Shown piece by piece: positions 3,796 to 22,617 of a stretch of DNA of 64,000 nucleotides; the stretch's first letter is position 1, and each line of letters opens with the position of its first letter. The notes under the pieces were generated by a model. It saw only the letters and a program-made list of their open reading frames with translations, ran no database searches and was not told the origin of the DNA. The stretch covers positions 2,329 to 66,328 of the forward strand of contig CAYZNK010000003.1 of assembly GCA_964479955.1 (NCBI GenBank), written 5' to 3'. This DNA comes from an uncultured Candidatus Saccharibacteria bacterium (GTDB taxonomy: Bacteria > Patescibacteriota > Minisyncoccia > Minisyncoccales > Staskawiczbacteraceae). A program made the translations under genes and the position numbers.

Positions 3796-3796
3796 T

Positions 3797-5011: not shown

Positions 5012-5844
5012 ATTTAAAAGAACGAATGGAAAAATTTAATAAGAGATGGAGTATAACTTCGACGGATTCGTATGAAGAAGCTTTTTCAAAATTCAAGACA
5101 AGAATTTTAAATATTTTTAAGGATATTGATAGACACCTCACAGATAAAAGTATTACAGCTTTTTGTCAGTATTATGGCATTGAAGAAGTGTGGCATTCAC
5201 AACCATACGGAGATTATTCATGGAGTACAAATGTGATTAATCGATTAAATCAAGAAAATGACGAAAAAGAATTTTACAGATTAATAGAACTTATATTTTC
5301 TTTAGATATCACATCTTCAATGGGATATGATCATAGTTATACTTATAGTAGGAATATTCTTTTTAGAGAAATTTCCAATGCTGTCGATTTGTCAGATGTA
5401 AATGTATCAATCACTGCAACCAACGGAGAGGTTATTTTATATCCGAAAGGAGAAAAATTGCTCGACACTGAATTAGTTGATTCACCTTTGTCATTTTTAA
5501 ACAAAGAAAGTGCCGAACACTTCGTCCAAGCTTTACAATTTTATCAAGCGAAGAAGCACATAAAATCAGCTGAAAGCCTAAGACGTTCTCTTGAGGAATT
5601 TTTGAGACATGAACTTAAAAATACAAAAGGATTAAATGCCAACATCCCTGAATTACAAACAAAACTAAAGTCTGATGGTCGTGATGCCCAAGTGCGAAAT
5701 ATTATTGGAACAACTCTAAATTATTTAGATCAATATTTTAACGAAAACAGTAAGCATAATGACGGTGATATTAATGATTCAGAAAATGAGTTCTTAATAT
5801 ATCAGGTTGGGTTATTGATGCGATATGTAAATAAAAATATATGA
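5008..5844 (+). CDS. Restriction-linked hypothetical protein (orf278) embedded between hsdS and hsdR
   Basis: 278 aa with ATGA overlaps at both ends (5008-5011, 5841-5844). No family recognised; the C-terminal helical region only vaguely resembles Abi_C/HEPN-like folds. Confidence 0.6.
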   Translation: MNLKERMEKFNKRWSITSTDSYEEAFSKFKTRILNIFKDIDRHLTDKSITAFCQYYGIEEVWHSQPYGDYSWSTNVINRLNQENDEKEFYRLIELIFSLDITSSMGYDHSYTYSRNILFREISNAVDLSDVNVSITATNGEVILYPKGEKLLDTELVDSPLSFLNKESAEHFVQALQFYQAKKHIKSAESLRRSLEEFLRHELKNTKGLNANIPELQTKLKSDGRDAQVRNIIGTTLNYLDQYFNENSKHNDGDINDSENEFLIYQVGLLMRYVNKNI

Positions 5845-8753
5845 AATTTAACGAACAATATACAATTGAATATCACATCATAAAATTCATACGAGAAAAA
5901 CTCGGCTATGAATATATTCCTGCGGAAGAATTTTCTAAACTCCGTTCTTTTGAAACTGAGTATATTATCACTTCTCATCTTTTGGAAGCGGTAAAGAAAA
6001 TTAACAATATTGACGATGCTGTAGCACAAAGCGTTGTGAGAGAAGTTAAAAAATCAGATACAAACGAAGCATTTCTACTCGTGATGCGAAACGGTATCAA
6101 TTTGAAAGATCCAAATACTGGTAACTTCCGCGATTATAAGATTGTTGATTTTGATAATCCTGAAAATAATCATTTTGTCGTTACTAATCAATTCTATTTT
6201 GAGGGAGCAACTGAAAACATCCGCCCTGATGTGATGATTTTCCTTAATGGTTTACCAGTTTGCGACATAGAGGCCAAAAGCCCTACTGCTTCCAGTAGTG
6301 TAAGTTTTGAAAATGCTATTGATCAGTTAAAGCGATATGAGAAAGTCGCACCTAAGCTTTTCCTACCTAACTGCCTTAATATTGCCACTGATGGTCTTAA
6401 AACCGTCTACGGAGCGACTTATTCCCCAAAGCAATACTTCCTTGCGTGGCGTGAAGACCCACAGGTTAAAGAGAAGAAATTTGAAGAAGAACTTGATTCC
6501 ACGCTTTTCTTTTTGCTGGATCAAAAGCAGATTCTTGATCTTATTAAAAACTTTATAGTTTTTGAGAAAAAGAAAGATGGAGTCACAAAGAAAATCACCA
6601 GATACCAGCAATTTTACGCGGCCAATAAAATAGTGGCTCGTGTTCAAGATGGTGAGAGAAAGAAAGGTTTGATTTGGCACACTCAAGGATCAGGTAAAAC
6701 TCTTACAATGTTTTTCACAGCTTGGAAACTTCGCTATAATCCAGAACTAAAAAATCCTAAAGTATTCATCTTGATTGATCGTATTGATCTTGATGATCAG
6801 GTATATGAAGAATTTGAAAGCTGGGGTGGACAAAATCTCGTCAGAATAGAATCACGAAAAGATCTTGAAAAGAAAATTAAAGGAGCTGACCGAGGTATAT
6901 TTATTTCAACAATTCAGAAATTTAGTGAATTGGAAGATATAGAAAATCTTGAGGGTAATGTGATTGTGCTTTCTGACGAAGCTCACCGAGACAATGAGGG
7001 TATTTCAGCCATTAAAATGCGTAATGCATTTAAGGATGCTTTCTTTTTTGGATTTACTGGAACACCAATTGATAAATTGACCCTCAATACTCACAGAAAC
7101 TTTGGCGAAGAGGGCGAACGCTATCTTGATTACTATTCTATTCAGCAAGCGATTGATGACGGCGCTACTTTGCCAGTTACCTACGAAGCCCGTCTTTCCA
7201 AATTCTTTATTGATGAGGAAAAAGTTGATCAGCAATTTAATGAACTAACTGCTGATTTGAATGATAAACAGAAAGAATTGCTTACTAAAAAATATGGTAA
7301 GAAAGAAGCACTTGTTAAGTTGGATAAAAGAATGGAAGCGGTTGCTCAAGATATTATTGAGCATTACAAGCTTTATGTTTTACCAAATGGATTCAAAGCT
7401 CAGGTTGTTTGTTATGATCGTGAAGCCACAGCTAAATACAAACAGTTGTTTGATAAGTTGATTCCAGTCGAATGGTCTGAAGTTGTTTATTCCCCGGGAG
7501 ATCCAAATAGCGAAAGCGATGATCTGAAAAAATACAATACAAACAAACAGAAGCGAGAGAAAATTATTGAGCAGTTCAAAGATCCAAATCATCCGCTTAA
7601 ATTCTTACTTGTGTGCGATATGCTTTTAACTGGTTTTGATGCACCAGTTGAACAAGTAATGTATTTGGACAAACCGCTTCGTGATCACAACCTGCTTCAA
7701 GCAATTGCCCGTACAAACCGAGTATTCCCAAATAAAGGATGTGGCAAGATTATCGATTACTATGGCGTAACTAAAAATCTCTACGACGCTCTTAACTTTG
7801 ATGAGAGTGTGGTTGATAGTGCCATGGTAGATATTAACCGTCTTAAAGAAGAGTTCTCAAAAGTTATTGGCGAAATAATGGAATTGTTTGTCGGGGTTAA
7901 TATCGAAGACCCATCAATAGATAATCTACGCCGATGCTTAAAGATATTTATTGAAAACCAGAGCAAACAACAATATTTCAAAGACAAGTACAGCCGACTC
8001 AAAATGCTTTTTGAGATTCTTTCACCCGATCCATTCCTGATGGACTATTTGCGCAAGTTTGAGTGGATTACCAGTTTTTATTTGGCTTTTGTAAAAGAAT
8101 TCCAAATCGATGATGTAGATTCTTTTTCTCTTGCCGAATATGGAGAGAAAATAAAAAGTTTAATTCAACAGAAAATTGACTATGAAGGTATTACCAAAAA
8201 CTTCCGAGAACTAAATATCCACGACTTAGCTACTTTAAACAAGCTTGATAAACTTCCCGAAGAAGAGAAGGCTCTTAATCTTGAAAAGATGTTAAAGCGT
8301 GAGATTTCAATTAACATTGATACTCATCCAGCATTCAAGAAATTCAGCGAACGACTTATTGCTATCCGCGTTGAGTTTGAAAAACACCAGATTGATTTAG
8401 CGGAAAGAATAAAACGATACTACGAACTTCTAAACGATATAAAGACAAAGACCGAAGAAGCTAAAGAATTGGGCTACACTCTCCGCGAATACGGCCTATT
8501 TGTAATCTCTGAAGAGTTTGTCAGCGAATCGGACAAAGATGTTGTTAAAGAGTTTGTAAAAGAAATGGCCGCACGACTTGAAGATGTTCTTGATGAAAAT
8601 TGGCAAGATTCATCTAAGAGAGAAGAATTTTTGAAAGAAGCAAAACGAACTCTGCAAGAATTAATCCTCAAAGACTATAAGGATAAAATAAAGGTTTCTG
8701 ATTTCCACAAATATTTAAATAGATTGGTGGATGTGGTAATTAAGCGATTTTAA
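5841..8753 (+). CDS. hsdR: Type I restriction enzyme R subunit HsdR
   Basis: N-terminal nuclease region (DIEAK), SF2 motor motifs HTQGSGKT, DEAH (LSDEAHRDNEG) and QAIARTNR. 970 aa. Confidence 0.92.
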   Translation: MKFNEQYTIEYHIIKFIREKLGYEYIPAEEFSKLRSFETEYIITSHLLEAVKKINNIDDAVAQSVVREVKKSDTNEAFLLVMRNGINLKDPNTGNFRDYKIVDFDNPENNHFVVTNQFYFEGATENIRPDVMIFLNGLPVCDIEAKSPTASSSVSFENAIDQLKRYEKVAPKLFLPNCLNIATDGLKTVYGATYSPKQYFLAWREDPQVKEKKFEEELDSTLFFLLDQKQILDLIKNFIVFEKKKDGVTKKITRYQQFYAANKIVARVQDGERKKGLIWHTQGSGKTLTMFFTAWKLRYNPELKNPKVFILIDRIDLDDQVYEEFESWGGQNLVRIESRKDLEKKIKGADRGIFISTIQKFSELEDIENLEGNVIVLSDEAHRDNEGISAIKMRNAFKDAFFFGFTGTPIDKLTLNTHRNFGEEGERYLDYYSIQQAIDDGATLPVTYEARLSKFFIDEEKVDQQFNELTADLNDKQKELLTKKYGKKEALVKLDKRMEAVAQDIIEHYKLYVLPNGFKAQVVCYDREATAKYKQLFDKLIPVEWSEVVYSPGDPNSESDDLKKYNTNKQKREKIIEQFKDPNHPLKFLLVCDMLLTGFDAPVEQVMYLDKPLRDHNLLQAIARTNRVFPNKGCGKIIDYYGVTKNLYDALNFDESVVDSAMVDINRLKEEFSKVIGEIMELFVGVNIEDPSIDNLRRCLKIFIENQSKQQYFKDKYSRLKMLFEILSPDPFLMDYLRKFEWITSFYLAFVKEFQIDDVDSFSLAEYGEKIKSLIQQKIDYEGITKNFRELNIHDLATLNKLDKLPEEEKALNLEKMLKREISINIDTHPAFKKFSERLIAIRVEFEKHQIDLAERIKRYYELLNDIKTKTEEAKELGYTLREYGLFVISEEFVSESDKDVVKEFVKEMAARLEDVLDENWQDSSKREEFLKEAKRTLQELILKDYKDKIKVSDFHKYLNRLVDVVIKRF

Positions 8754-8755
8754 TT

Positions 8756-9325
8756 ATGAAAAGAAAAATCGAGCTACATAAAAAGAAAGTCGAATACACC
8801 CTCAAGGTGAGCAAGCGAGCTCGAAGAATGAGACTGGCTATCTATTGCGATGGCAACTTTGTGGTCACCGCGCCGCGAAATATGAGTGAGAATATTGTTG
8901 AACAATTCATAATCAGAAAATCGCAGTGGATACTTGATAAGTTGGATTATTTCAAAAGCATCTCTGGGCAGGTATTTGCAAAAGGTACCAAAAAAGATTA
9001 TGCCGAATACAAAGATCAGGCGTTGGCCTTGGCTGAAAAACGAATTGGGTATTTCAATAAGACTTACGGTTTTAAATTCAACAAAATCAACATCAAGAAC
9101 CAAAAGACTCGCTGGGGTAGCTGTTCAAGAAAAGGTAATCTCAATTTTAACTACAAAATCGCCTTACTTCCCGAGAGATTGGCTGACTATATTATCGTCC
9201 ACGAGCTTTGTCACTTGAAAGAATTTAATCACTCACAAAAGTTTTGGAATTTAGTCGCTAAAATTATGCCTGATTATTTAGAAATCAGAAATGAGCTAAA
9301 AAGGAGCGGAATAAAATTTATTTAA
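8756..9325 (+). CDS. DUF45/YgjP-like HExxH metallopeptidase
   Basis: HELCHLKEFNHSQKFW zinc motif near the C-terminus and typical ~190 aa size. Starts 2 nt after the hsdR stop. Confidence 0.8.
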   Translation: MKRKIELHKKKVEYTLKVSKRARRMRLAIYCDGNFVVTAPRNMSENIVEQFIIRKSQWILDKLDYFKSISGQVFAKGTKKDYAEYKDQALALAEKRIGYFNKTYGFKFNKINIKNQKTRWGSCSRKGNLNFNYKIALLPERLADYIIVHELCHLKEFNHSQKFWNLVAKIMPDYLEIRNELKRSGIKFI

Positions 9326-9329
9326 TATT

Positions 9330-11780
9330 ATGGAAACTGCACCATATTCAATTTATATAAACCACAGACCATTTAGAATCGTTTTTTTCTTGAGTCCAAC
9401 TACAGATATTGCTTGGATAGATGCAGTTATTAAGTTCAATCGAGAAAAATGGGGAGGAAGATTTAATCCAATCATTCTTACCGATGGAACGACAATCGCG
9501 GATGATTGGTGGAAATTTCTTCGAGGATACGATCCGGATATTATTTGTTCAACAGTTCCTCTTTCTGATGAATTACGAAAAAAGATACATGTTTTTCTTT
9601 CTCCACTTCGTGTTGAAGAATTAGTTCAAGATCAGGTGTATATAAGAGTTGATGATTATCCGCTCACGATATTACCAACTGGTAGAAATGTATCTAAAAT
9701 TGGCATTCCTAATTTCGACGAGAAGAATAACCTAATTGTCTTTGAAGTTGATGCAAGCACACCGGAGATTATAAAAAGTTTCTTAGATCGAAACTTTGGC
9801 TTGCTCGAACAGGGGCAGATGATGACATATCATCTCAAAAAAGCATTAGAGACGTGCCAAATCAAGAAATACAAGGTAACCGATGAAGAAACACTCAACG
9901 AAGCATTGCTAGATTTGGGTGAATGGCGTACTCGGGCAGTATTCCCATCTCAAATTTGCGCCCTCCCAAACTCAATTAAAGAAGCGCACCATGCCTACAA
10001 TAATGAGGGTTTCGAGCTTGTTATAGGAGACAGCGCGGATGAAATAATTCGTTCTTGGAATCGCACGCTAGAAATGGGATCATGGTTACGCACTTCAATA
10101 ACTAATTTATGGCTTCCAACCGTACTTGCCAACAGCGCATCACTCAAACCTGGACTTGGTAAATTCCTTAATCGTTATACTGGGAGTGCCGCAAATGACC
10201 ACAATCGTCGAGTTAACTTTACCTCATTTACTCTTAGCGAGACTGATCTACAAACAATCGCGAATTCTTTTCAAACAACAATTTGGCACCCGAGACGTAT
10301 AACAAAATTCACAGCACATCCAATGCCAGACTATGAATCTCAAGGATCATATTTTTTCCTTAGACAGGGATTAGATTTTCATAGAGCCCATTCGAACGAA
10401 GAATATCTTGTTCTTGATGAGCCAGATATAGAGCAGGGATTTATGGGCGGAGAGAATTGGTTCACTGATTTATATATTCAATATCGGCCAGAACGTTTCA
10501 AAAACATCATAGGAAAAGACTATTGGTGGCAACTCCCTAAGCGAAACGGTCTATTGCGAGATTTACAGTTTTTTAACAAGCCAGCACGAATTAACGAGCA
10601 CGGCATGTTTAGCGTAATGATGAGGCGCAGAACAAGCATCATTGTCGGTCACGATGACGGAACTTTAGTAGTCAAAATACCTGAAGACAACTCTGTATTT
10701 CATGCATTAATTTGTGGCGAGGGTTTTGATTGTATTGAACGCGGAGATAGAGAAAGGTTTTTATCTCGTCCTTTTTATCATCTGCAACGTTCAGATAAAG
10801 GTATGTATTTATCTGGCGTTCTTGGACTTTTTCCAGATCTTCTAAATGCACATCGACTTTTTGAGGAAAGATACTGGCGTAATCTCTTTGAGCGAATGGC
10901 AAATCATAATCCAGAAAAGGATGACCGAACACAACAAGAACTTTTAAACAAACTCAGTAAAAAGATAGATTCGGGGTTGGATTTTAAGAATGATCGTGCT
11001 AAAGAATGGCTAGCTCATAATGTTTTTAACATTGCAAAAAAGTATAGCAAGGAAGAAATTGATCTCGACTACGAAACTATGATCGACCTTGCCAAAGAAG
11101 AAACTAACCAATATAACAAGAAACCTTCGGGACAAACTATTGAGTTTAATGAAGACTATTTCAGGAATGAGCTGTCAGATCTTGTCGAAATGAATATCCT
11201 ACAACTAGGAATTAAGCCACGATGTCCTAAATGCGGATATCGAATTTGGTATAGAATTGATGATGCAAAACAAGAAATAACTTGTCGTGGTTGCGGATAT
11301 AAATTTTCCGTTCCTGCTGAATCAAAATGGTTTTATCGACTGAATAATCTTATACGAGCAGCTGTTTCATTGCACGGAACGGTACCGCTTCTTATTACGC
11401 TCGGGCAGTTAATGGGAGATTCTCGATCTTCTGCGATGTTTATGCCAAGCCTGGAGCTCTTAAAAAAAGAAGAAGGCGGACAAGGAAAAATGACAATTTA
11501 TGGTGAACTTGATCTGGTTTGTATTAAGGACGGTAAGTTTATTATTGGAGAGATAAAACAATCAACTGGATTATTTGGGCCTGATGATTTTAAACGAATG
11601 AAAGATGTTGCTAGGATGGTCCGCCCTGATGAAATCATTTTTTCATCTTTAGATAAAAAACCGAATGCTTTTGTAACGGAGAATATTGAAAAACTCAAAA
11701 CCGAGTTAGCTGATTTAGAGATAAACGTTGAATGGTACCCGATTCATTATTGGGTATTTGAACCCCATCCTGTCAGATAA
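9330..11780 (+). CDS. 816-aa protein of unknown function with C-terminal zinc ribbon and PD-(D/E)xK-like motif (orf816)
   Basis: Long uninterrupted ORF starting 4 nt after the peptidase gene. CPKC-x16-CRGC at nt 11222-11300; GELDLVCIKDGKFIIGEIKQ at nt 11503-11565. No NTPase motifs seen. Confidence 0.7.
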   Translation: METAPYSIYINHRPFRIVFFLSPTTDIAWIDAVIKFNREKWGGRFNPIILTDGTTIADDWWKFLRGYDPDIICSTVPLSDELRKKIHVFLSPLRVEELVQDQVYIRVDDYPLTILPTGRNVSKIGIPNFDEKNNLIVFEVDASTPEIIKSFLDRNFGLLEQGQMMTYHLKKALETCQIKKYKVTDEETLNEALLDLGEWRTRAVFPSQICALPNSIKEAHHAYNNEGFELVIGDSADEIIRSWNRTLEMGSWLRTSITNLWLPTVLANSASLKPGLGKFLNRYTGSAANDHNRRVNFTSFTLSETDLQTIANSFQTTIWHPRRITKFTAHPMPDYESQGSYFFLRQGLDFHRAHSNEEYLVLDEPDIEQGFMGGENWFTDLYIQYRPERFKNIIGKDYWWQLPKRNGLLRDLQFFNKPARINEHGMFSVMMRRRTSIIVGHDDGTLVVKIPEDNSVFHALICGEGFDCIERGDRERFLSRPFYHLQRSDKGMYLSGVLGLFPDLLNAHRLFEERYWRNLFERMANHNPEKDDRTQQELLNKLSKKIDSGLDFKNDRAKEWLAHNVFNIAKKYSKEEIDLDYETMIDLAKEETNQYNKKPSGQTIEFNEDYFRNELSDLVEMNILQLGIKPRCPKCGYRIWYRIDDAKQEITCRGCGYKFSVPAESKWFYRLNNLIRAAVSLHGTVPLLITLGQLMGDSRSSAMFMPSLELLKKEEGGQGKMTIYGELDLVCIKDGKFIIGEIKQSTGLFGPDDFKRMKDVARMVRPDEIIFSSLDKKPNAFVTENIEKLKTELADLEINVEWYPIHYWVFEPHPVR

Positions 11781-11901
11781 TATTTGTTTTTTCGTGCAAC
11801 TATTCCTTAAACGCATATAAAAAAGGCTGTTGGTAACTCGGACTTCGCAAGCCCCTGTTATTAAGCTAAAGTACAGAGGCCTTTAAATCCTTTGGATTTT
11901 C

Positions 11902-11910
11902 TGGTAAAAT
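11902..11910 (+). promoter_or_regulatory. Possible extended -10 element (TGGTAAAAT)
   Basis: TGn-TAAAAT lies 17 nt downstream of a weak -35-like TTTAAA, just upstream of the structured region. Confidence 0.3.
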
Positions 11911-11916
11911 GTACTT

Positions 11917-12129
11917 AACAATTTAATATTACTGGCCGGAAGGCCAGCGACCTAACCCCTTTGGATTTTCCAAAGGATATGGTCGGGAAACCCAACGAAG
12001 ATACTGAACCCCGCGTTCAGCGACTCTTCGTTGGGTCATATCGGGAAACTGGTATGGGACCGCAAGGTCTAGCTGGCGCGGGGTTCTGTGTATCCAAAAC
12101 TCTATCGCCAGCCACAAAGGTTGGTTTTT
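11917..12129 (+). ncRNA. Candidate structured non-coding RNA, class unknown
   Basis: Locally G+C-rich intergenic stretch with nested hairpins, two of them capped by GNRA loops on the + strand only (GGAA at 11938-11941, GCAA at 12062-12065). Also a 10-bp stem 11991-12000/12026-12035 and a terminal T-run at 12125-12129. Confidence 0.4.
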
Positions 12130-12156
12130 ATTTATTAATTAACATTAAACAAAAAT

Positions 12157-12924
12157 ATGAACAGTCTATTTTTAGTTCTCTTATTACTCTCTTTCGTCGG
12201 TATCATTGTCGGATTAATAAAACCGTCAGTGGTAAAAATGAAATCACGTAAACAATCACTGTTAGTATTCGGTGGCTCAACAGTTTTATTCTTTTTATTA
12301 TTCGGAGTAACAGCCGACCCAGCTCCAGTCACAACTCCAACTCCAGTAGCTCAAGTCGAGCAAGCTGAAAATCAAAAGGTGCCAGAAATTGAAAAGCCAA
12401 TAACGCAGGAAGTAGAACAGCCAAAGCCAGAACCAGTTGCACAATCAAAAACTCTTGAGGAAAAAGTAAGCGATGCCATAAACACCTCTCTCGGTTCAAA
12501 AACAAATACCGACAAACAAAGAGTTGTTGGCGTTGAAATTACCAAGTATGACGCCAGTATGATTTCTGCGTATAAATACAAAAGTGGAGACTCGGTCGTT
12601 TATCTATTGATAAAAATAAATGCCGATGAAAATTTAACAACCAATCTCCAAAAGAACACGATGCACGACGAGGCTGTTAAAATAGCTAAGGCAGTTTTCC
12701 CGGTAGACCAAACAATTGGAGATATAATTATCTACTCACAACTTCCGCTTAAGGATCAATATGGCAATACCGAGGATGGCACAGCTATTACATACTCAAT
12801 GTCGCGATCTTTATTCGATAAAATAAACTGGAGTAATTTTAGTTATCGTGATCTACCGACACTCCTAAAATCAGAGCATAAAATTGACGACAGGAATAAT
12901 TACTCGGAAAGTATCAAGTTTTAA
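12157..12924 (+). CDS. Membrane-anchored hypothetical protein
   Basis: Two N-terminal hydrophobic segments, a Pro/Glu/Gln-rich linker, then a ~150-aa globular C-terminal domain. No family recognised. Confidence 0.55.
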   Translation: MNSLFLVLLLLSFVGIIVGLIKPSVVKMKSRKQSLLVFGGSTVLFFLLFGVTADPAPVTTPTPVAQVEQAENQKVPEIEKPITQEVEQPKPEPVAQSKTLEEKVSDAINTSLGSKTNTDKQRVVGVEITKYDASMISAYKYKSGDSVVYLLIKINADENLTTNLQKNTMHDEAVKIAKAVFPVDQTIGDIIIYSQLPLKDQYGNTEDGTAITYSMSRSLFDKINWSNFSYRDLPTLLKSEHKIDDRNNYSESIKF

Positions 12925-12933
12925 TATCAACTG

Positions 12934-14382
12934 TTATAAGAAAATGATACGCGGTCTTGGCTTATTCGCAAAGATAATAAACTGGTTGACGACAATAGAA
13001 AAGGCATCAGCGAGGTCATCGTGCTTTTCAACACCAAAACCAATCAGTTGGGTAATGAGTTCGTCGGCTCCTTTTTGGGGCAATTTTATCAAACCCTCCT
13101 TAATAGCCGAGGTTGTTAATGCTAATCGCTCTCTTTTATCGCCATGCGGTGATACTCCCTCAACGTGTAAACCACCGCTTTTAAGTTGCTGAATTAAGGC
13201 CTCTTGATAGGCAACTTTTTCGATAAAAATTTTAGGATAGTGATTTGTTCCCTTTGCAGAGGTTGCGATTGCTTTGATCTTATTTACTTGTTCTGGAAAT
13301 GTAATCCGATTATTAAATGGGAACGGTTCTACATAAGCCCATGTTTTATCTTCTTTTCTACAAATTTTTAAAGTTACGATCGACGTGCAATCAGCACCAC
13401 TTTTTTCCGAGATGGCCAGATCAACTCCTATGTAATCAATAAGATGATCGTCTTTCCATGGTCTTTCCTCTGGATCATAGTACTGAATCCATTCGGGGTG
13501 CACGACGCGATCGGTGTCAGAAACAATTCGTAACAAATATTCCCTTTGCCAAGCGGCATCGTTGCCTGATTTTAATTTCTCAGCTTCAACCGCCTCCTGA
13601 TTAGGATATTTTCCTGGCCAAGCAACATTATTATTTTTATCAAAAAGCGGATAGGCTTTAAATATTCCGTCAATTCGTTTTTCTTCTACGTCTGATTTCA
13701 AACGCATAATAAGAGAATCTTCGTGAAGCAGGTTGCCAACTATAACTAATCTGGTACTTCTATCTCCAGCAGGGATAACTTCGCCAGTTAGCCACTGATA
13801 AGTTTTTTGCCGACTCTCGCGAGTCTTTACTGACGCTAAGTCTTCCACATCATCACAAATAATAATATCTGGGCGATATTGGTGATGTCGTATTCCTCGA
13901 ATGCTTTGCTCGCTGGAAGCGGCTGTGATTCTGGCGTTGAGATTTGAAAATACTAACGAAGATGAACCCCATTCGTCACTTTCTTCTTGGAACGGTCCTA
14001 GATCATTTTGGAGTAATTGGTTCCCCTCAAGCTCTCGTTTCAAATTCATCATGTGCTGTTTGGCTTGGGTTCTAGTTTGGCAAAGAATAAGCACAAATTT
14101 CTTTTCCTGTTCGCCAAGAATCGCCCATATCGGATAAGACATGGTTAAAATTGTTGACTTGGCTGAACCACGAAAAGCTACGACGAATAAATTTTTTACG
14201 TCGGTTCTTTCGGAAAGATGGAAAATCTCTTTTTGAAAAGGCGCCGTTTCGTACTTTACATAATGGGCGAAATAAAAGTGAAAAAAGAATAGATGAGATT
14301 GCCTGGTAATGGCAGTACGAATGCTACGATCCTTGAACATCTGTTCCGCCAAGGTCGGAGGCAATATCTTGTTCGTGGTCAT
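12934..14382 (-). CDS. terL: Phage terminase large subunit
   Basis: Walker A-like AFRGSAKST, Walker B IIICDDVED, and a C-terminal RNaseH-like nuclease region (IGVDLA..). The track start at 14412 is GTG; ATGs at 14382 and 14340 are alternatives. Confidence 0.85.
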   Translation of the reverse strand: MTTNKILPPTLAEQMFKDRSIRTAITRQSHLFFFHFYFAHYVKYETAPFQKEIFHLSERTDVKNLFVVAFRGSAKSTILTMSYPIWAILGEQEKKFVLILCQTRTQAKQHMMNLKRELEGNQLLQNDLGPFQEESDEWGSSSLVFSNLNARITAASSEQSIRGIRHHQYRPDIIICDDVEDLASVKTRESRQKTYQWLTGEVIPAGDRSTRLVIVGNLLHEDSLIMRLKSDVEEKRIDGIFKAYPLFDKNNNVAWPGKYPNQEAVEAEKLKSGNDAAWQREYLLRIVSDTDRVVHPEWIQYYDPEERPWKDDHLIDYIGVDLAISEKSGADCTSIVTLKICRKEDKTWAYVEPFPFNNRITFPEQVNKIKAIATSAKGTNHYPKIFIEKVAYQEALIQQLKSGGLHVEGVSPHGDKRERLALTTSAIKEGLIKLPQKGADELITQLIGFGVEKHDDLADAFSIVVNQFIIFANKPRPRIIFL

Positions 14383-14785
14383 AGTTTTTTTCTTGATTAA
14401 CTTCCTCGGCACCCAAGGACGCGAGCCGTAAAGCTTCGGTAACTATCGCTTGCTGTTCTGGCGTTAGCTCATTTTGAGGGGCAGTAATATTTCCGCTAAC
14501 TTCCACTCGATCTCTGAATTTTGGACTGCGTTTTCGGAGCCAGAAAGATATTGCTTGCCAGCTTTTTTCTCGTATCAATGAGATAAGCTGAGACTCGCTC
14601 ATTTCATTGATAAGGGCTTCGCCCTCAGCAAGCGCCTGTTCAAGTTCTTTATTAAATTCTTCATCTTCATCACGCCAGCGGTAAACGGAAGAGCGAGCAA
14701 CACCGACCTTTTCGCAAGCCACTTGAATGATCGGAATTTTACGAATTTGCGCTAAAAATAATTCTTTTGTTCTATCTTTTTTCAT
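14324..14785 (-). CDS. Terminase small subunit-like HTH protein
   Basis: HTH ACEKVGVARSSVYRWRDEDEEF, positioned immediately upstream of terL. The ATG at 14785 forms an ATGA overlap with the upstream gene's stop. Confidence 0.55.
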   Translation of the reverse strand: MKKDRTKELFLAQIRKIPIIQVACEKVGVARSSVYRWRDEDEEFNKELEQALAEGEALINEMSESQLISLIREKSWQAISFWLRKRSPKFRDRVEVSGNITAPQNELTPEQQAIVTEALRLASLGAEEVNQEKNYDHEQDIASDLGGTDVQGS

Positions 14786-16122
14786 AATATTTTCTTTGGC
14801 TTTAGTCCTGTTAGTTTTGACCAACGTTTTAAGATTACTTCGGCATAGATTGGACATTTTTCCATTAAAAAGCATCGACGTCCCATTTTTACGGCCGCGA
14901 TTAAGGTTGAACCGCTTCCACCATAAGGCTCAAAAATTAGATCGTTTCTTTTAGTTAATATTTTGATGTAAGGAATAAGTATCTCTAACGGCTTCGTACC
15001 GAAAATGATTCCTTGCCCTGATGATTTCTCATCGGCCGCAATGTGCTCAATAAAATCCGTTGGACAATATTTTTTACCTTTGCCGTAGCTTTCCCAATGC
15101 GGAGAGCCTGAGGTGGCGAACAATGCTGTCTCGTATTCAGTTTGGAGCAATTCATCTGATTCAGGTTCCGTGTTTAATACAACTTTTCCAGCAGTTCCAA
15201 CTATCGCGAAATCATGTTTATTAAAGAATTTGAACTTCGCGCTAAATCCTTGGACTCTGTTCGGAATATGCCAAATAATTGTGTTGCGATACTTCCAATG
15301 CTTTTCGAGTTCGCTCCAAATGGTTTTAAGATTCTTTGGGTTTTCGTAAACAATTATTGAGAAGTCCGGCTTTTGAATTTTGGTGACGTTATTCATCCAT
15401 AATTCCGTAAAATTATCTGGCAAGGTTTCAGTATCGATATACACACGGTCACGTTTTAATCCAAAGCCTTTTGTCACATCTCCATTTTTCTTTTTCTTGC
15501 CTTTTAAGTAATCAAGTAAATATGGTGGATCTGTAAAAACCATATCTGCTTTATGCTCGCCCATAAGTTTTAAAACGTCTGCTTCAATAGTAGAATTTCC
15601 GACCATTAACCTACTACCGTTCAGGTCATATACATCTCCTGTCTTTGCATTAATTTTTTTAATATCCAACTTTTCCAATTCTTTATTCATATCAAATATT
15701 CCAGGTGTTTCGTCGATTTTGAAAATTTCATCTAAGTCTTCGCTGGAAAAACCGACGTCTTTTAAAAATACTTCGTCAAAATTGGCGAGAAGTTCCCAAT
15801 CAAATGATCCTGTATTTTGGTTCAATCTTAAATTTAAATTTTTCTCCTTTGCTATATCAGGGATATCGATATAAACAACAGGGACTTCTTTTATTCCGAG
15901 TTCTTTAATAGCGGCCAACCGAAAGTGGCCACCAATAACAATGCCTTTGCGATTGGGAGCACAATTTACCAGTAATGGATCGACCAAGCCATACCGCTTA
16001 ATGCTTTCTTTGAGATTGACCATTTGCTCCTTAGTCCAAGTCCGAGGATTATATGGTGCTGGTTTTAATTCCGACACCGCAACATAAACGATATTTAATT
16101 TTTCTGTTTGTGTTTTATTCAT
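14782..16122 (-). CDS. ParB-like nuclease domain fused to a DNA N6/N4 methyltransferase
   Basis: N-terminal ParB/Srx motif (VAVSELKPAPYNPR...GGHFRLAAIKELG). Methylase motifs FTDPPY and FEPYGGSGST. Confidence 0.85.
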   Translation of the reverse strand: MNKTQTEKLNIVYVAVSELKPAPYNPRTWTKEQMVNLKESIKRYGLVDPLLVNCAPNRKGIVIGGHFRLAAIKELGIKEVPVVYIDIPDIAKEKNLNLRLNQNTGSFDWELLANFDEVFLKDVGFSSEDLDEIFKIDETPGIFDMNKELEKLDIKKINAKTGDVYDLNGSRLMVGNSTIEADVLKLMGEHKADMVFTDPPYLLDYLKGKKKKNGDVTKGFGLKRDRVYIDTETLPDNFTELWMNNVTKIQKPDFSIIVYENPKNLKTIWSELEKHWKYRNTIIWHIPNRVQGFSAKFKFFNKHDFAIVGTAGKVVLNTEPESDELLQTEYETALFATSGSPHWESYGKGKKYCPTDFIEHIAADEKSSGQGIIFGTKPLEILIPYIKILTKRNDLIFEPYGGSGSTLIAAVKMGRRCFLMEKCPIYAEVILKRWSKLTGLKPKKIL

Positions 16123-16175
16123 ATGCTTTATTTATATCAGTCAGTACCCGTCCTTCGTCCATAAAGCTGAGCATA

Positions 16176-16202
16176 CAAAAAAGAGGCTATTTTGAAGCCT
16201 CT
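16176..16202 (-). terminator. Rho-independent terminator
   Basis: On the minus strand, a 7-bp agaggct/agcctct stem followed by a T-run, downstream of the 201-aa ORF. Confidence 0.65.
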
Positions 16203-16237
16203 TGATATGAGTTATTAACTTGAGATACGACAGACTA

Positions 16238-16843
16238 TCAATTCTGCGTAATCGGATAAAGCGGATTTATCATATATCCACTATGAGATTTTGAAAGTAT
16301 GAGATTGTTATTTGTACCAGCAGGTAAATTCAAGGCAGTGCGTGCCTTACGATTTATTGAGCCGATTGCATCCCTAAATGATTCCGCACTTTTTGAGGAA
16401 ACATCATCCATTATTTCTTTTGTTTGGCGATAACTAGGATAATCAATTATTGCTCGAAGTATTTTAAGCCTCAATCCCTCACCACGCATCGGATAGCAGT
16501 ATTGTTCCTTTGGTTCTCTGTATAAATCACCCTCGTGCGTAAGAGTAAGTGAAATGCGATTACTCTGTGATAGTTTTGCGGTTTGAAGATATCTCTCGAT
16601 GGTTTTATCTATTGTCATGCTTGTTTGTTCGGCTATACCCATCGGACGCTCTTTGCCCATAAACATTTTTAAAACCTCAAAAGTCTCTTGATTGATTTTT
16701 TCTTTCTTAAGCAATGTCAGCAAATCTTTTTCAAATTTAACAAAAACACCCTGCTTTTTAAAGCCTTCAAATAATTCTTTTTGAAGTTTTTTTATTTGGC
16801 TATAAAGTATGGTTGCTTGTGCATTTGGTCCTAGTTTTTTCAT
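16238..16843 (-). CDS. Hypothetical protein (possible winged-helix C-terminus)
   Basis: 201-aa ORF with an ATG start, divergent from the HTH/HEPN operon. No family recognised. Confidence 0.5.
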   Translation of the reverse strand: MKKLGPNAQATILYSQIKKLQKELFEGFKKQGVFVKFEKDLLTLLKKEKINQETFEVLKMFMGKERPMGIAEQTSMTIDKTIERYLQTAKLSQSNRISLTLTHEGDLYREPKEQYCYPMRGEGLRLKILRAIIDYPSYRQTKEIMDDVSSKSAESFRDAIGSINRKARTALNLPAGTNNNLILSKSHSGYMINPLYPITQN

Positions 16844-16898
16844 AGAGATAATTTACAAAGTGAGTATTGCCATGTAAACTTATAGTAAGTCATATTTT

Positions 16899-17099
16899 AT
16901 GAAAAATCAACTGACGAAATTGAAACAATTGCCAGATATTTTAACACTCCAGCAAGCTTGTGAAGTTTTAAATTGCCACCCCAATACGCTTCGTGGCTGG
17001 GATAATAGAGATGTATTGAAAGCCATTCGTTTTGGCTCAAGAAAAGATAGGAGGTATAAGAAAACCGATATTTTGAAATTTATCGGCGAAAAACAATAA
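16899..17099 (+). CDS. Excisionase/MerR-family HTH DNA-binding protein
   Basis: 66 aa. LTLQQACEVLNCHPNTLRGWDNRDVLKAIRFGSRKDRRYKKTDI is paralogous to the N-terminal extension of HsdM. Confidence 0.75.
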   Translation: MKNQLTKLKQLPDILTLQQACEVLNCHPNTLRGWDNRDVLKAIRFGSRKDRRYKKTDILKFIGEKQ

Positions 17100-17100
17100 T

Positions 17101-17712
17101 ATGGATTATTCAATAGATTTACACGAGACTATAAAAGTTTCTGAGTATATAAAAGCCGAGTCTGAAATTGACGCGGTGATTTATCGACAGGAATTTGAAC
17201 ATCACCGAGCGGAATACTTAAAATCGAAGGCTGAATCAGAGTTAATTTTTACATTTATTTTTCTGCAAATATATACGGAGTGTTTCTTACACCAAAACAT
17301 GAGAAGGGTTGTTATGCTGGAATTCAAACCGCCACGCGACTCAACTTATACAACATGGCTTGCTAGTGAAAAAAGGTATGTTCCAGAAAAAATGGATAAT
17401 TTTATAATTCTATTCTTTTCTCCAGCCCCAGCCCCAATCCAGCAAATGGCGGATATTATTAAAGACCGTTTGGGAAAAATAAGCTCTATTCGTAATCAAT
17501 TTGCTCACGGGCACAAAGCCTCAGCATGGTCTGACTCAGAAGGCAATTCGGGGTCTACTCCTGCTAAATTGCTTCTTACGGAAACACAATTAACGCAGTC
17601 GGTAACTGAAATCAACGAATTGGGAAATGCATGGAACGATTTACTTGATTCAATTATGCCTCAGTGTAAAGCGTTAAAAAGAATAGATGATTTTAAGTTT
17701 CGCAGTATTTAA
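17101..17712 (+). CDS. HEPN-like protein (Rx4H motif)
   Basis: 203 aa. SIRNQFAHGH matches the HEPN RNxxxH(G) catalytic signature. Starts 1 nt after the HTH gene's stop. Confidence 0.55.
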   Translation: MDYSIDLHETIKVSEYIKAESEIDAVIYRQEFEHHRAEYLKSKAESELIFTFIFLQIYTECFLHQNMRRVVMLEFKPPRDSTYTTWLASEKRYVPEKMDNFIILFFSPAPAPIQQMADIIKDRLGKISSIRNQFAHGHKASAWSDSEGNSGSTPAKLLLTETQLTQSVTEINELGNAWNDLLDSIMPQCKALKRIDDFKFRSI

Positions 17713-17717
17713 ACTAT

Positions 17718-18809
17718 ATGGCCGATCAATCGTATATACATCTTAAAGATGAAATTTATTACAATGAACTCTACGACAAATTAACGATTGAGGAATGTCG
17801 ATGCTGGGAGAAAAAAGAATTTTGGGATGTACCAAGTATAAAGGATGAAGATCCTATAAAAATGAAGATTAAGATTAGTTTTGCTGATAAGGTGGTTTTG
17901 CCAGTAGCCTTGTATGCGATTAAGGGTGAACGCTACGCAAAGAAATCTGAAACTATCCGCCAGTGGATGGCACGCGATAAGGCAAAAGATGAACAAGTAG
18001 CTAACGCCGCAGAACCAAAAGGAATTCGCTGTCTGGTATGCAGTTCGCCTATGAGTTGTATTTCTAGGGATTTACATTCCGATACTAAAGATAAAGACAG
18101 GGTTCTTTTTATGTTCGAGTGTCCAAGTAAAGGACATAGACGCAGAGTTTACTGGGAAAATGGCGAAGAATGGGAGCCTCAACCCGACCTCTGTCCCAAA
18201 TGTAAATCTATTACAAATTCATCACACATTCGAGAAGGTAACCTTATTGTCACTACCAATATTTGTCCGCAGTGCGGAAACAAGGAAACTGACACGATTG
18301 ATTTGAATTCAAAAGAAGAAAAAATTGATCCTAATTTTGAAGCCGATCGTAAAAAATATTGCTTATCAGAAAAAGAGGGAGGAGAGTATGTCTCGTGGAT
18401 GGCAAACTCTAAACATTTATTGGATTCATTTAAAGAGCGGGAGCAGAACAAGGATGTTTATGAAGCAGTCGCCAAGATTAAAACGCTGGCAATTATTGAT
18501 CTACAAAATTTACTAAATTCTATAATCGAAAAAGCTGGGTATACCAAGTTGGAACTTGGAAAACCCGAAGTTAAAAAAGACCTGTTTGTAGAATTTACTG
18601 TTCAGGATAACAGGCCGGGCAGAGTTGAATATGATAGTCGCCATGGCCTCGAGAAGTTTATCAAGAAGACCTTGGAGGGCACTAATTGGCGATTGATGAG
18701 TGAGGGTATCTCGTATAAGCTTGGTTTTCTTAACGGACGATTACGAGGAGCGTCTGGCGAAGAAAACCTCAAAGAAATGATAACTGGCAAGGATACTGAT
18801 CAGGAATAA
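17718..18809 (+). CDS. Zinc-ribbon-containing hypothetical protein
   Basis: 363 aa with CLVCSS...ECPSKGH and CPKCKS...CPQCGN cysteine pairs. Lies 5 nt after the HEPN-like gene. Confidence 0.55.
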   Translation: MADQSYIHLKDEIYYNELYDKLTIEECRCWEKKEFWDVPSIKDEDPIKMKIKISFADKVVLPVALYAIKGERYAKKSETIRQWMARDKAKDEQVANAAEPKGIRCLVCSSPMSCISRDLHSDTKDKDRVLFMFECPSKGHRRRVYWENGEEWEPQPDLCPKCKSITNSSHIREGNLIVTTNICPQCGNKETDTIDLNSKEEKIDPNFEADRKKYCLSEKEGGEYVSWMANSKHLLDSFKEREQNKDVYEAVAKIKTLAIIDLQNLLNSIIEKAGYTKLELGKPEVKKDLFVEFTVQDNRPGRVEYDSRHGLEKFIKKTLEGTNWRLMSEGISYKLGFLNGRLRGASGEENLKEMITGKDTDQE

Positions 18810-18905
18810 GACAGTGGGGTGTCCCAATTTTTGAGACAGTCAATAATATCGTTTTCATGTCCGATTTGTCCCATTTAGGAAGATCAGACCCCCGACCCAC
18901 TTACT

Positions 18906-18935
18906 TTGACAGTTGAGCAAAAATAATGCTAAAAT
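18906..18935 (+). promoter_or_regulatory. Near-consensus sigma70-type promoter (TTGACA-18-TGcTAAAAT)
   Basis: TTGACA at 18906-18911 and TAAAAT at 18930-18935, preceded by TG at 18927-18928. Lies ~130 nt upstream of infB. Confidence 0.5.
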
Positions 18936-19064
18936 ACCCTTACAAACATTGAAGTCTCGGGTACTTAACCCGAGTACACCGCTGGATGTATTTTGGCAAA
19001 TAGGTTGAATTTATGTCAAATTTGATTTAATATAATAGATTGCAGTACAATCTGTTTTTTTGAT

Positions 19065-20956: not shown

Positions 20957-21028
20957 GGCACGGTAGCCAAGTGGTAAGGCAAGGGTCTGCAAAACCCTTA
21001 TACGTGGGTTCAATTCCCACCCGTGCCT
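20957..21028 (+). tRNA. tRNA-Cys(GCA)
   Basis: Hand-folded cloverleaf: acceptor ggcacgg/ccgtgcc, anticodon loop ctGCAaa, T-arm gtggg-ttcaatt-cccac. Confidence 0.85.
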
Positions 21029-21117
21029 CAAAAATAAGTGCTAATTTATTTATAGATAATATAGTATACGAATAGTAATTTATTGTTCTTTAGTCTACCA
21101 TATGTTAAAATAAGTTA

Positions 21118-21624
21118 ATGAAGCCAAGAAAATGGACAGAAGAACAATTAAGAGAATCTGCTAAAAAATCAACCAGCGTTAGACAGGTTTTATATTATTT
21201 GGGGCTAAAAGAAGCTGGAGGAAATTACGCTCAGATTAGAAAATATTTGGATTTTTATAAAATTAGTACATCACACTTTACGGGCCCAGGTTGGAGTAAG
21301 GGATTAAAAGGAATCGGAAAACCCCGGATACCGCTAGAAAAAATTTTAGTTAAAAATAGTACATTCCAAAGCTTTAAACTAAAAAATAGATTATTTTCAG
21401 CAGGAATAAAGCAGCCTAAATGCGAAGAATGCGGTTGGGCTGAAAAAAGTTTAAATGGTTATTTGCCACTGGAGTTAGACCATATAAATGGAGATCATTT
21501 TGATAATCGTTTGGAAAATTTAAGAATTCTATGTCCCAATTGTCACAGTTTGAAACCCAATCATAGGGGCAGAAACATTGGTAAATATGCCCGGATGGCG
21601 GAATGGTATACGCGCAACACTTAA
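21118..21624 (+). CDS. HNH homing endonuclease
   Basis: ELDHINGDHFDNRLENLRILCPNCH HNH motif with a CEECG zinc pair. The last 36 nt overlap tRNA-Leu(TAA). Confidence 0.8.
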   Translation: MKPRKWTEEQLRESAKKSTSVRQVLYYLGLKEAGGNYAQIRKYLDFYKISTSHFTGPGWSKGLKGIGKPRIPLEKILVKNSTFQSFKLKNRLFSAGIKQPKCEECGWAEKSLNGYLPLELDHINGDHFDNRLENLRILCPNCHSLKPNHRGRNIGKYARMAEWYTRNT

Positions 21625-21672
21625 AATGTTGTGAGGCTTGTCTTCATGTGGGTTCGACTCCCACTCCGGGCA
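21589..21672 (+). tRNA. tRNA-Leu(TAA), type II with long variable arm
   Basis: Acceptor gcccgga/tccgggc, anticodon stem caaca/tgttg, loop ctTAAaa, T-arm tggg-ttcgact-ccca. Confidence 0.85.
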
Positions 21673-21675
21673 CAA

Positions 21676-21714: not shown

Positions 21715-21722
21715 GTTACGGA

Positions 21723-22372: not shown

Positions 22373-22379
22373 TTATATG

Positions 22380-22599: not shown

Positions 22600-22617
22600 T
22601 TGTTATACTTACTGTGT

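Follow-up and report, generated by a model that had tools for sequence, protein, structure and literature searches.

LOOT RNA (Rfam RF03000) is an orphan family of structured RNA, and the subject of this analysis is a member of that family found in a stretch of DNA of 64,000 nucleotides, hereafter the window, from an uncultured Candidatus Saccharibacteria bacterium (contig CAYZNK010000003.1 of assembly GCA_964479955.1). The motif is said to originate from work by Weinberg and colleagues published in Nucleic Acids Research in 2017. A structure-prediction paper describes it as ~43 bp arranged in six helices with many 'cross-covariations', and it appears in a table of the Rfam 15 paper; the searchable literature yielded neither a function nor a host for it.

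The described systems that come closest to it are diverse. In the cobalamin riboswitch, output is set by a kissing loop between L5 and L13. The put RNAs of HK022 (putL and putR) are two simple stem-loops of ~70 nt, and the platform of an integron is composed of intI, attI and the Pc promoter. The 11-nt GAAA-tetraloop receptor, CCUAAG...UAUGG, is a motif of group I and group II introns and of RNase P. Finally, ROOL, GOLLD, OLE, manA and EGFOA are ornate or self-assembling RNAs of bacteria and phages (PMC12286853; bioRxiv 10.64898/2026.07.01.735769).

Positions 11918-12131 on the + strand of the window encode a LOOT family member, a compact multi-helix RNA (P0-P4). The gene sits in an integrative element of a bacterium of the Candidate Phyla Radiation (CPR, or Patescibacteria), together with genes for a serine recombinase, a small and a large terminase and a ParB-methylase. 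It heads the accessory-gene slot of this mobile element, directly behind its own promoter and before a variable accessory gene.

LOOT RNA and its conserved 3′ tail

A scan against Rfam 15 matched 11949-12070 (+) to the LOOT model over its full length (model positions 1-121 of 121), with 84.3 bits against a gathering score of 46.4 and E = 1.8e-14 on the whole window. Between 11700 and 12300 no other Rfam family was found at E ≤ 1, besides a chance SCARNA7 match (E = 0.53). An earlier note on this DNA had proposed a candidate structured RNA, ~210 nt long and on the + strand, that it could not assign to RNase P, SRP, tmRNA, 6S or any riboswitch class it knew. Its description stands, given the full-length Rfam match and the promoter-like and terminator-like sites, but the RNA can now be placed: it is a new member of a catalogued family, not a new class, and because the family is known the novelty of the locus is low. 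A reading of 11600-12500 found all of the hairpins, stems and repeats listed in the note in place, among them the -10 element TGGTAAAAT (11902-10), the T-run (12125-29) and both copies of a 13-nt motif. The hairpins are the LOOT helices P0, P1, P2a, P2b and P4 or elements that flank them, and one helix that had been overlooked is P3. The core and its immediate 5′ neighbor are made up as follows.

11932-11947 (+): 5′ hairpin CUGGCC-GGAA-GGCCAG with a GNRA loop, outside the Rfam model
11949-12070 (+): LOOT core, Rfam RF03000
11948-52/11981-85 (+): outer stem as first listed, enclosing CCUUUGG-AUUUU-CCAAAGG
11949-52/11981-84 (+): P0, 92% of alignment cells paired
11957-64/11970-77 (+): P1, 92.5% of cells paired
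11991-12001/12025-35 (+): P2a, the long stem of 10 or 11 bp, enclosing CUGAAC-CCCGC-GUUCAG (12004-20); 97% of cells paired
12004-09/12015-20 (+): P2b, the weakest helix, 76% of cells paired
12037-44/12049-56 (+; span 12037-56): P3, CAUAUCGG-GAAA-CUGGUAUG, the overlooked helix, with its GAAA loop at 12045-48; 98.5% of cells paired
12057-61/12066-70 (+; span 12057-70): P4, hairpin GGACC-GCAA-GGUCU with a GCAA loop; 84-100% of cells paired

The 230-nt stretch folds with -96.7 kcal/mol, compared with -64.5 ± 4.9 for shuffled sequences (z = -6.6), and its G+C content (0.50-0.55 at 11950-12099) exceeds that of the flanks (0.30-0.39). Since the minus strand folds almost equally well (z = -6.5), stability alone does not choose between the strands. 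The assignment to the + strand was made from the Rfam match, from the G-U pairs and GNRA loops, and from the promoter-like site at 11882-11910 and the terminator-like site at 12107-12125 with its T-run.

Homologues were collected with two search patterns. The first, which used the 5′ consensus only, returned 105 loci, two of which (L001 and L103, from IMG/VR) were true LOOTs. The second, built on P3, P4 and the 3′ tail described below, was run on metagenome and genome collections and, after filtering for an upstream CCTAA, yielded at least 155 LOOTs with at least 147 distinct cores; all family counts given here are among the matches listed. GCUGGCG and UGUGU in the tail are imposed by this pattern, and the family sample is thus preselected for the tail. 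On viral contigs one of three matches to the second pattern was a false positive in a coding region, and LOOT is rare in IMG/VR. All 20 homologues that were re-scanned with Rfam passed the LOOT gathering score, with 53-99 bits. Nine recombinase proteins were looked up as a sample independent of the patterns, and LOOT lay within 5 kb in three of their contexts (L370, L360 and L365).

The pairing fractions listed above come from a covariance model that was built from a MAFFT alignment and used to align 102 LOOTs. Over the six helices 91.5% of cells are paired, 40 of the 43 pairs vary on both sides and none of 500 shuffles reached as high a value; compensatory changes occur in more than 1000 alignment cells. 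Every helix of the Rfam model covaries.

A conserved part of the core resembles a known tertiary-contact motif. The internal loop CCUAA(N)...(N)AUGG fits the pattern of the 11-nt GAAA-tetraloop receptor, and in the window it is represented by CCUAAC (11951-56) and UAUGG (11978-82), with GAAA at 12045-48. CCUAA is present in 99 of 101 LOOTs and a GAAA loop on P3 in 100 of 101, while the P4 loop is always GNRA. The exact CCUAAG...UAUGG occurs in 10 of the 101, the remainder having CCUAAA...CAUGG or CCUAAC...UAUGG, and the dominant variant differs from the receptor of introns and RNase P in placing an A opposite C instead of a G-U wobble. At this variable position the two sides change together, A going with C in 61 sequences and G or C with U in 33. 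By its resemblance to the known motif we describe the loop as receptor-like, and the P3 tetraloop may dock into it, either in the same molecule or in another.

The window RNA thus agrees with the Rfam model over its whole length, in its six helices, in its CCUAA/AUGG and GAAA signatures and in its strand. It differs in that the model ends at P4, whereas the window and every relative examined run on for ~20 nt (GCUGGCG-N8-UGUGU), and in that the window's subfamily adds the 5′ GNRA hairpin and a terminator. The 5′ hairpin is restricted to this subfamily, where it has the compensatory variants CUGGUC/GACCAG and CUGGC-GUAA-GCCAG. The added 3′ sequence pairs with the core through two segments.

12006-12015 (+): 5′ strand of the long-range helix, GAACCCCGCG, covering the 5′ side of the P2b stem and its loop, plus the first base on the 3′ side
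12072-12091 (+): conserved 3′ tail GCUGGCG-CGGGGUUC-UGUGU, outside the Rfam model; 12077-86 is the 3′ strand of the long-range helix

The 10-nt complementarity between 12006-15 and 12077-86 had been pointed out in the earlier note as a long-range or alternative pairing, and covariation in 142 homologues upholds it. In a MAFFT alignment 95.7% of its cells are paired and 204 cells vary on both sides; none of 500 shuffles scored as high, and slid controls reached at most 58% paired with at most 9 both-side cells. Pair types at two of the positions illustrate the exchange (CG 73 and UA 57 at one; UG 56, AU 39, GC 22, GU 10, CG 7 and UA 7 at the other), and the model-based alignment gave a similar value, with 94.8% of cells paired. 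This pairing is the best-supported LOOT feature that the Rfam model lacks. As it occupies the 5′ half of the P2b stem together with the loop, it cannot coexist with an intact P2b.

The tail is also present in all five LOOTs that were found without the tail pattern (L001, L103, L370, L360 and L365). Two of these carry compensatory changes: L360 has GCCGGCG opposite GUCGG, and in L365 an otherwise invariant CG:CG is replaced by AG:CU. GCUGG (12072-76) may extend the long-range helix by 4-5 pairs with (U)CAGC (UCAGC, 12017-21), and it is able to pair in 89.9% of cells, GCUGGCG itself being fixed by the search pattern. A 4-bp closing helix between a 5′ ACAA and a 3′ UUGU is possible, both strands being invariant.

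Upstream of the RNA, a promoter scan of the region gave a single promoter-like site, and three features, this site among them, lie ahead of the first hairpin.

11882-11910 (+): promoter, with a -35-like TTTAAA (11882-87), TG (11902-03), a -10 TAAAAT (11905-10) and 17-nt spacing; 9 of 12 positions match, plus the TG
11885-11899 (no strand): palindrome AAATCC-TTT-GGATTT, overlapping the -35 region and including the upstream copy of the 13-mer
11918-11931 (+): 5′ leader ACAAUUUAAUAUUA, with the ACAAYUNAAUA motif

An anchored alignment of the homologues shows a TAnAnT box that often has a TG ahead of it; the motif ACAAYUNAAUA comes 6-7 nt further on, and 107 of 147 homologues have 'ACAA' no more than 40 nt from P0. 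Transcription probably starts at ~11918, at this conserved motif. The palindrome is conserved in relatives whatever their P1, and its variants (AAATCCACGGGATTT, AAATCCCTTGGATTT) are still palindromic. It looks like an operator for a dimeric repressor and would then serve as a protein-binding site. The 13-nt motif does occur twice in the window, as reported (2 matches where 0.05 are expected); the exact repeat is found only in the window among 151 loci. Because the upstream copy stays unchanged when P1 changes, the repeat shows no functional link with the RNA fold, and we rejected it as a guide/target pair.

Output modules and a proposed switch

Beyond the tail the window carries the one terminator found on the + strand of the scanned region, and then a co-oriented gene.

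12073-78/12106-11 (+): CUGGCG/CGCCAG pairing
12098-12112 (+): 3′ strand of a candidate antiterminator; CGCCAGC (12106-12) pairs with GCUGGCG (12072-78), and AACUCU with GGGGUU in the minimum-free-energy fold
12107-12129 (+): intrinsic terminator GCCAGCC-ACAAA-GGUUGGU (hairpin 12107-12125) followed by UUUUAUUU; 7 pairs, 4 of them G-C, with a T-run; -9.6 kcal/mol
12157-12924 (+): orf255, membrane-anchored, the first co-oriented gene after the RNA and the presumed regulated gene

The long-range helix, the antiterminator and the terminator are mutually exclusive pairings in series. Their energies in the window are -19.5 kcal/mol for the 10-bp long-range helix (-28.5 when extended), -13.9 for the antiterminator and -9.6 for the terminator, with -5.1 for the P2b hairpin, and alternative folds of the whole molecule (-76.8, -78.1 and -78.7) differ by less than 2 kcal/mol. 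Because these energies are comparable and the alternatives so close, our interpretation is that LOOT acts in cis, as a conformational switch gating orf255; we put the chance that this is correct at about even. We infer that the pairings would alternate in vivo and so control expression. When the P2b region holds the tail (12072-86), CGCCAGCC (12106-13) would be free and the terminator at 12107-25 would form; transcription would then stop and an RNA of ~214 nt would be released. When P2b is kept as a local hairpin, the tail would instead pair with 12098-12112 as an antiterminator, allowing read-through into orf255. In relatives the same core would be joined to other outputs, either a hairpin formed by the tail or a start-codon region that mimics the 5′ strand of P2a.

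All three output modules are seen in the homologues. Of 140 loci, 23 (the window among them) have an intrinsic terminator beyond the tail. In 17 of 22 terminator loci the tail can form a helix of 7 bp or more that reaches the 5′ arm of the terminator, as opposed to 17% of shuffles. The helix begins at the G of GCUGGCG, and where it reaches 10-12 bp the partner strand tracks the first bases of N8, UGUGG being matched by CUACA, and UGGGG by UUCCA, UUUCA or UUCCG. A tail hairpin of at least 10 bp with the sequence just past UGUGU is found in 20% of loci versus 4% of shuffles. In the third module, 12 of 108 loci (L125, L146, L175, L179, L180, L196, L281, L292, L299, L313, L332 and L336) carry a copy of their own J0/2 and P2a 5′ strand that ends at the start codon. 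The copies are exact over 10-18 nt (for example AAAACCCATCCCTG or AAAACTATCCCTAGTA) and vary between loci exactly as P2a does; their predicted duplexes with the 3′ strand of P2a have -15 to -24 kcal/mol, against -12.2 for the 1% tail of controls. The same start-codon copy of P2a is present in L365 (560-620, minus strand), which was found through its recombinase. Since the start-codon region copies the 5′ strand of P2a, sequestration by the 3′ strand is possible, and the copy could be either a sequestration device or the scar of a recombination within LOOT. It often lies within a small hairpin, GGCATAG...CTATGCC, that holds the ATG.

The placement of LOOT is consistent with action in cis. The first downstream open reading frame (ORF) shares the orientation of the RNA in 135 of 139 loci (97%) and starts a median of 40 nt past the tail, whereas upstream neighbors have no orientation bias (74 opposite, 52 same); the conserved promoter fits the same arrangement. 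Rfam files the family as a small RNA (sRNA), whereas the context seen here, with a co-oriented ORF close behind and a terminator in 16% of loci, favors a leader over an independent sRNA.

In overall design LOOT resembles riboswitches built on a loop-tail or kissing-loop contact. It has a core rich in tertiary contacts followed by variable platforms (terminator/antiterminator or start-site sequestration), and a loop of its core pairs with a downstream strand that is also part of the platform. LOOT thus has one mark of a riboswitch, alternative pairings that exclude each other and bear on a terminator or start site; it lacks another, a ligand pathway shared among the downstream genes, as 50 Pfam families occur among 128 downstream ORFs, the largest of which (SNase) accounts for nine. 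LOOT differs further from riboswitches in its location on a mobile element and in its conserved bases, which are mostly tetraloop/receptor contacts. The downstream products include SNase nucleases, DUF4352 and DUF4145 proteins, HsdR-N proteins, DNA methylases, trypsin-like and subtilisin proteases and zinc-ribbon membrane proteins. The commonest downstream neighbor is the orf255 family, present in 33 loci and the first ORF in 24; orf255 itself has PHROG matches of unknown function. Members of this family share an N-terminal membrane anchor (motif ...GLIKPS...) and have variable C-terminal domains, including staphylococcal-nuclease domains; they make up a set of anchored proteins with swappable heads, encoded right behind LOOT.

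Several observations weigh against a switch. About half of the loci have none of the three output modules, and the downstream genes have no common function or pathway, unlike those of a classical metabolite riboswitch. Accessibility of the ribosome-binding site hardly changes with the state of the tail (0.60 unpaired with the tail free, 0.58 with it sequestered), an effect so small that we rejected family-wide translational control through pairing of the tail with the ribosome-binding site. The start of the RNA, its end and the read-through are all deduced from sequence. The covariation of the long-range helix would fit equally well with an alternating pairing, a static pseudoknot or an intermolecular helix, and its GCUGG extension is backed by the one compensatory case in L360. 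As GCUGGCG and UGUGU were set by the search pattern, their conservation is overstated. Finally, the Rfam type of LOOT is 'Gene; sRNA', that of a stand-alone RNA.

The mobile element around the RNA

The window is a CPR chromosome, with a short IF-2 of 505 aa, RbfA, L19, FtsH, Tgt, ATP synthase and scattered tRNA genes, and the named relatives of its IF-2, at 76-79% identity, come from Candidatus Staskawiczbacteria. Among the listed LOOT matches in genomes, 47 have lineage labels: 37 are Patescibacteria/CPR (Saccharibacteria, Parcubacteria, Paceibacteria, Magasanik-, Doudna-, Uhr-, Nealson-, Adler- and Kerfeldbacteria), 4 are labeled only 'bacterium' and 6 are metagenome-assembled genomes labeled otherwise. 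In BLASTN searches of 50,697 phage records, neither 9330-13000 nor 11902-12131 resembled the DNA of any cultured phage. Within the window, two features of this context lie upstream of the RNA.

617-1960 (-): large serine recombinase (Pfam Resolvase, Recombinase and Zn_ribbon_recom)
11827-11883 (no strand): left edge of the LOOT block, CTGTTGGTAAC...TTAAGCTAAAGTACAGAGGCC, a recurrent breakpoint and a repeat of 1997-2049

The recombinase is the protein most regularly found with LOOT. tBLASTN found homologues in 62 of 154 LOOT loci, upstream and on the opposite strand in 50 of the 62, and the proportion rises to 12 of 13 among loci flanked on each side by 4 kb or more. In a tight class of ~17 loci the recombinase starts 97-200 nt from P0, and in five others it is co-oriented and ends ~45 nt before the RNA. 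Viewed from the recombinase, six of the nine contexts examined have no LOOT within 5 kb, though in some it may lie further away. The recombinase family is large, with at least 8000 homologues; its top 120 clusters (at 90% identity) share 83-98% identity although they are annotated from many CPR classes, a uniformity that suggests recent horizontal spread. In L360, L365 and L373 the 3′ side of the recombinase abuts ordinary host genes, and the recombinase therefore marks one end of the element. tRNA genes lie near the recombinase end in L001 (41-127, +) and L109 (3167-3238, -) and are possible integration landmarks.

The next commonest neighbors in the 154 loci are the ParB-methylase (46 loci), the small terminase (30) and the large terminase (18), and the trio is common to the window, L001 and L103. 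In the window a large terminase, a small terminase and a ParB-N6/N4 methylase occupy 12934-16122 (-) and 16238-18809. From LOOT up to the host IF-2 gene, nothing can be recognized as a capsid, portal or tail gene, and Pfam, PHROG and PADLOC give no match for three of the ORFs in this interval; the element may be a decayed prophage or a satellite. No convincing attachment-site repeat was found at its right end (18810-19064) or among direct repeats in 1-20000. A non-coding stretch of 125 nt (18858-18982) separates the last element ORF from IF-2 and has counterparts with 76-77% identity at the same relative position in L160 and L219; it may mark the element's other end or belong to the regulatory DNA of the host. 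Further to the right the window contains 13 scattered tRNA genes, including a tRNA-Ile with anticodon TAT, and among them ORFs for HNH endonuclease and LAGLIDADG proteins (20957-25201, 21118-21624 and 22955-23641).

Between the recombinase and LOOT lies exchangeable DNA. BLASTN alignments of six relatives begin at 11816-11828, with a recurrent breakpoint at 11826-11828, ~120 nt upstream of P0. L277 and L333 join sequence corresponding to ~2000 of the window directly to 11828, which identifies 2001-11827 as an insertion between the recombinase and the LOOT block. This 9.8-kb insertion carries type I hsdM, hsdS and hsdR, an ORF of 278 aa with a PADLOC PDC-S32 match, a YgjP-like metallopeptidase and orf816, and other relatives hold different cargo at the same site. 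L365 has an OLD-family AAA/TOPRIM ATPase and a UvrD-like helicase, a pair resembling Gabija, between recombinase and LOOT (855-4510, -), and L373, L377, L380 and L384 have type I or type III-like restriction-modification genes beside the recombinase. Diverged direct repeats of ~55 nt (...TTAAGCTAnnnTACAGAnnCCT), at 1997-2049 and 11827-11883, flank the cargo block of the window. Relative to the uninterrupted site of L277 and L333 the junctions fall at TTGT/TGT, in GATAA(C/G)TTGT/ and GGCTGT/TGGTAAC, where the slash marks the junction. A repeat-flanked cargo of this kind would fit site-specific recombination at a short core. Variable DNA thus flanks both sides of a LOOT block of ~310 nt.

The gene orf816 belongs to this cargo. 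The note had suggested checking whether homologues of this gene, which precedes the RNA, co-occur with it. None of the 154 LOOT loci encodes a homologue, and orf816 lies within the 9.8-kb insertion that close relatives lack. Pfam, NCBIfam, PADLOC and PHROG give no match to it, and the assemblies contain no exact record of it. We rejected it as a functional partner and regard it as unrelated cargo.

LOOT-headed units can be tandem, as two loci with additional copies indicate. L138 has a partial LOOT (790-914, +; P0, P1 and junction only, 23.5 bits) 1.1 kb upstream of the full copy, and L166 has two full, diverged copies 3.2 kb apart (877-1021 and 4054-4180, -).

The arrangement recalls that of an integron, in that a recombinase is divergent from a fixed promoter block with exchangeable cargo behind it. 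On the recombinase side, too, there is cargo, which is flanked by repeats. It differs from an integron in having a large serine rather than a tyrosine recombinase and a fixed block that encodes a folded RNA, and no attC-like sites were identified. A broader proposal would join these observations to the switch: the recombinase, the repeat site ~120 nt upstream, the operator-bearing promoter and LOOT would together form an integron-like platform for gene capture and expression, spread horizontally in the CPR, with defense and other accessory cassettes on either side of the LOOT block. LOOT would then be a new class of RNA sensor, a tetraloop-receptor-clamped junction with a pseudoknot that controls a terminator or start codon and decides when cargo is expressed. 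We hold this wider picture to be unlikely.

Alternative explanations and significance

Some described kinds of RNA were considered as identities for the window RNA and rejected. A phi29-type pRNA does not agree with the lack of an Rfam pRNA match, the lack of similarity to the 50,697 phage records and the location in a CPR chromosome. An IS110-type bridge or guide RNA, which would lie beside a DEDD (IS110-family) recombinase and have loops complementary to target and donor DNA, was set aside since the recombinase here is of the large serine type, since the 13-mer, the only sequence repeated between RNA and DNA, does not follow changes in P1, and since the breakpoint sequence is constant while P1 and P2a vary. 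The known processive antitermination families (put and EAR) were discarded on the Rfam scan of 11700-12300, which returned no family beyond LOOT at E ≤ 1 apart from the chance SCARNA7 match.

The strongest competitor to a cis-acting switch, somewhat unlikely in our estimate, is that LOOT is a stand-alone RNA of the element, acting in trans or as a structural component, with the terminated RNA of ~214 nt as its product and the downstream genes merely exploiting a strong promoter. The pseudoknot would then be permanent, or the long-range helix intermolecular, and with the GAAA loop and receptor would give a dimer or larger assembly that could serve in packaging, in integration or in manipulating the host. 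In its favor, a dedicated promoter precedes the RNA, which in the window also ends in a terminator of its own; genes for recombinase and terminase are closely linked to it; and its conserved bases are mostly tertiary-contact motifs (receptor, GAAA and GNRA loops) with no obvious ligand pocket. On geometric grounds, a helix of 14-15 bp beside the 11-bp P2a with a 4-nt linker looks strained within one molecule and easy between two. Self-assembly is known for small and large phage-associated RNAs (PMC12286853; bioRxiv 10.64898/2026.07.01.735769). Like ROOL, GOLLD and OLE, LOOT is an orphan from the same type of discovery, linked to mobile elements, with GNRA loops, a receptor motif and a covarying helix that is possibly intermolecular; it differs from them in being far smaller (~145-215 nt) and in being tied to the start of a transcription unit, and LOOT oligomers are hypothetical. 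Against a stand-alone product, a terminator precedes the next ORF in only 23 of 140 loci, so that it would form the 5′ segment of an mRNA in the majority of them. Co-orientation in 97% of loci at a median of 40 nt exceeds what genes taking advantage of a promoter would need, and both the terminator/antiterminator design and the start-codon copies of P2a would be purposeless.

A processive antitermination RNA, comparable to HK022 put or Bacillus EAR, would account for some of the same features and seems improbable to us. Nascent LOOT would bind RNA polymerase and make it resistant to terminators, so that cargo would be expressed only when transcribed from the LOOT promoter. As with put and EAR, the structured RNA comes right after a promoter in a phage-like element and is followed by a terminator and unrelated genes, and mutually unrelated downstream genes are what a device acting on polymerase would be expected to have. 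Yet LOOT has no match to those RNAs in sequence or structure, the next-best Rfam family being at E = 0.53. Most loci have no terminator to overcome, and the downstream units look short, consisting in the window of a single gene before the convergent terminase. Where a terminator is present the tail competes with its arm, and this conserved complementarity points to classical attenuation.

It is very unlikely, in our judgment, that LOOT is an RNA partner of the serine recombinase, whether as guide, directionality factor, regulator or part of the attachment site, the two together making up an integron-like capture platform. The association is close, as the 12 of 13 well-flanked loci, the 50 of 62 upstream recombinases on the opposite strand and the ~17 starting 97-200 nt from P0 all attest. 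The recurrent breakpoint ~120 nt upstream of P0, the 9.8-kb cargo with its diverged direct repeats and TTGT/TGT junctions, the variable DNA on either side of the ~310-nt block, and the locus with two LOOT copies and that with a partial one would also suit such a role. To our knowledge, however, no large serine recombinase uses RNA; their sites are recognized through protein domains. Within the window's subfamily the breakpoint sequence CTGTTGGTAAC is constant while P1 and P2a vary, the sole repeat shared by RNA and DNA, the 13-mer, does not covary with P1, and six of the nine recombinase contexts examined have no LOOT within 5 kb, with the reservation made above that some may have one further off.

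There is next to no chance that the region is protein-coding or a chance G+C-rich palindromic stretch: ORFs of 96 aa (11961-12251, +) and 62 aa (11929-12117, -) do overlap it and both strands fold equally well, but no reading frame is conserved across 147 homologues, whose core lengths are spread evenly modulo 3 (45/44/58) and whose stop-free frames are scattered over five frames, as the earlier note's view that these ORFs lack coding character would predict, and the coding reading is refuted by this scatter together with the full-length Rfam match and the more than 1000 compensatory cells.

A cis-acting switch remains our preferred reading, and what the locus contributes can be stated apart from it. 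To an orphan Rfam family it adds a host, the Patescibacteria/CPR, bacteria with small genomes that are episymbiotic and largely uncultured. It also adds a vehicle, a very widely shared serine-recombinase element with terminase genes and with restriction-modification or Gabija-like cargo. The gene model of LOOT is corrected by a conserved 3′ tail that covaries with the apex of P2b and is absent from the current Rfam model. The mechanism proposed is testable, as a contest of tail, antiterminator and terminator in the window and of P2a with the start codon in other loci. If LOOT is instead a static structural RNA, it would be a compact candidate for assembly mediated by tetraloop-receptor contacts. 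If the switch is real, it would be a sensor controlling defense and accessory genes in CPR bacteria, where regulatory RNA is barely understood.

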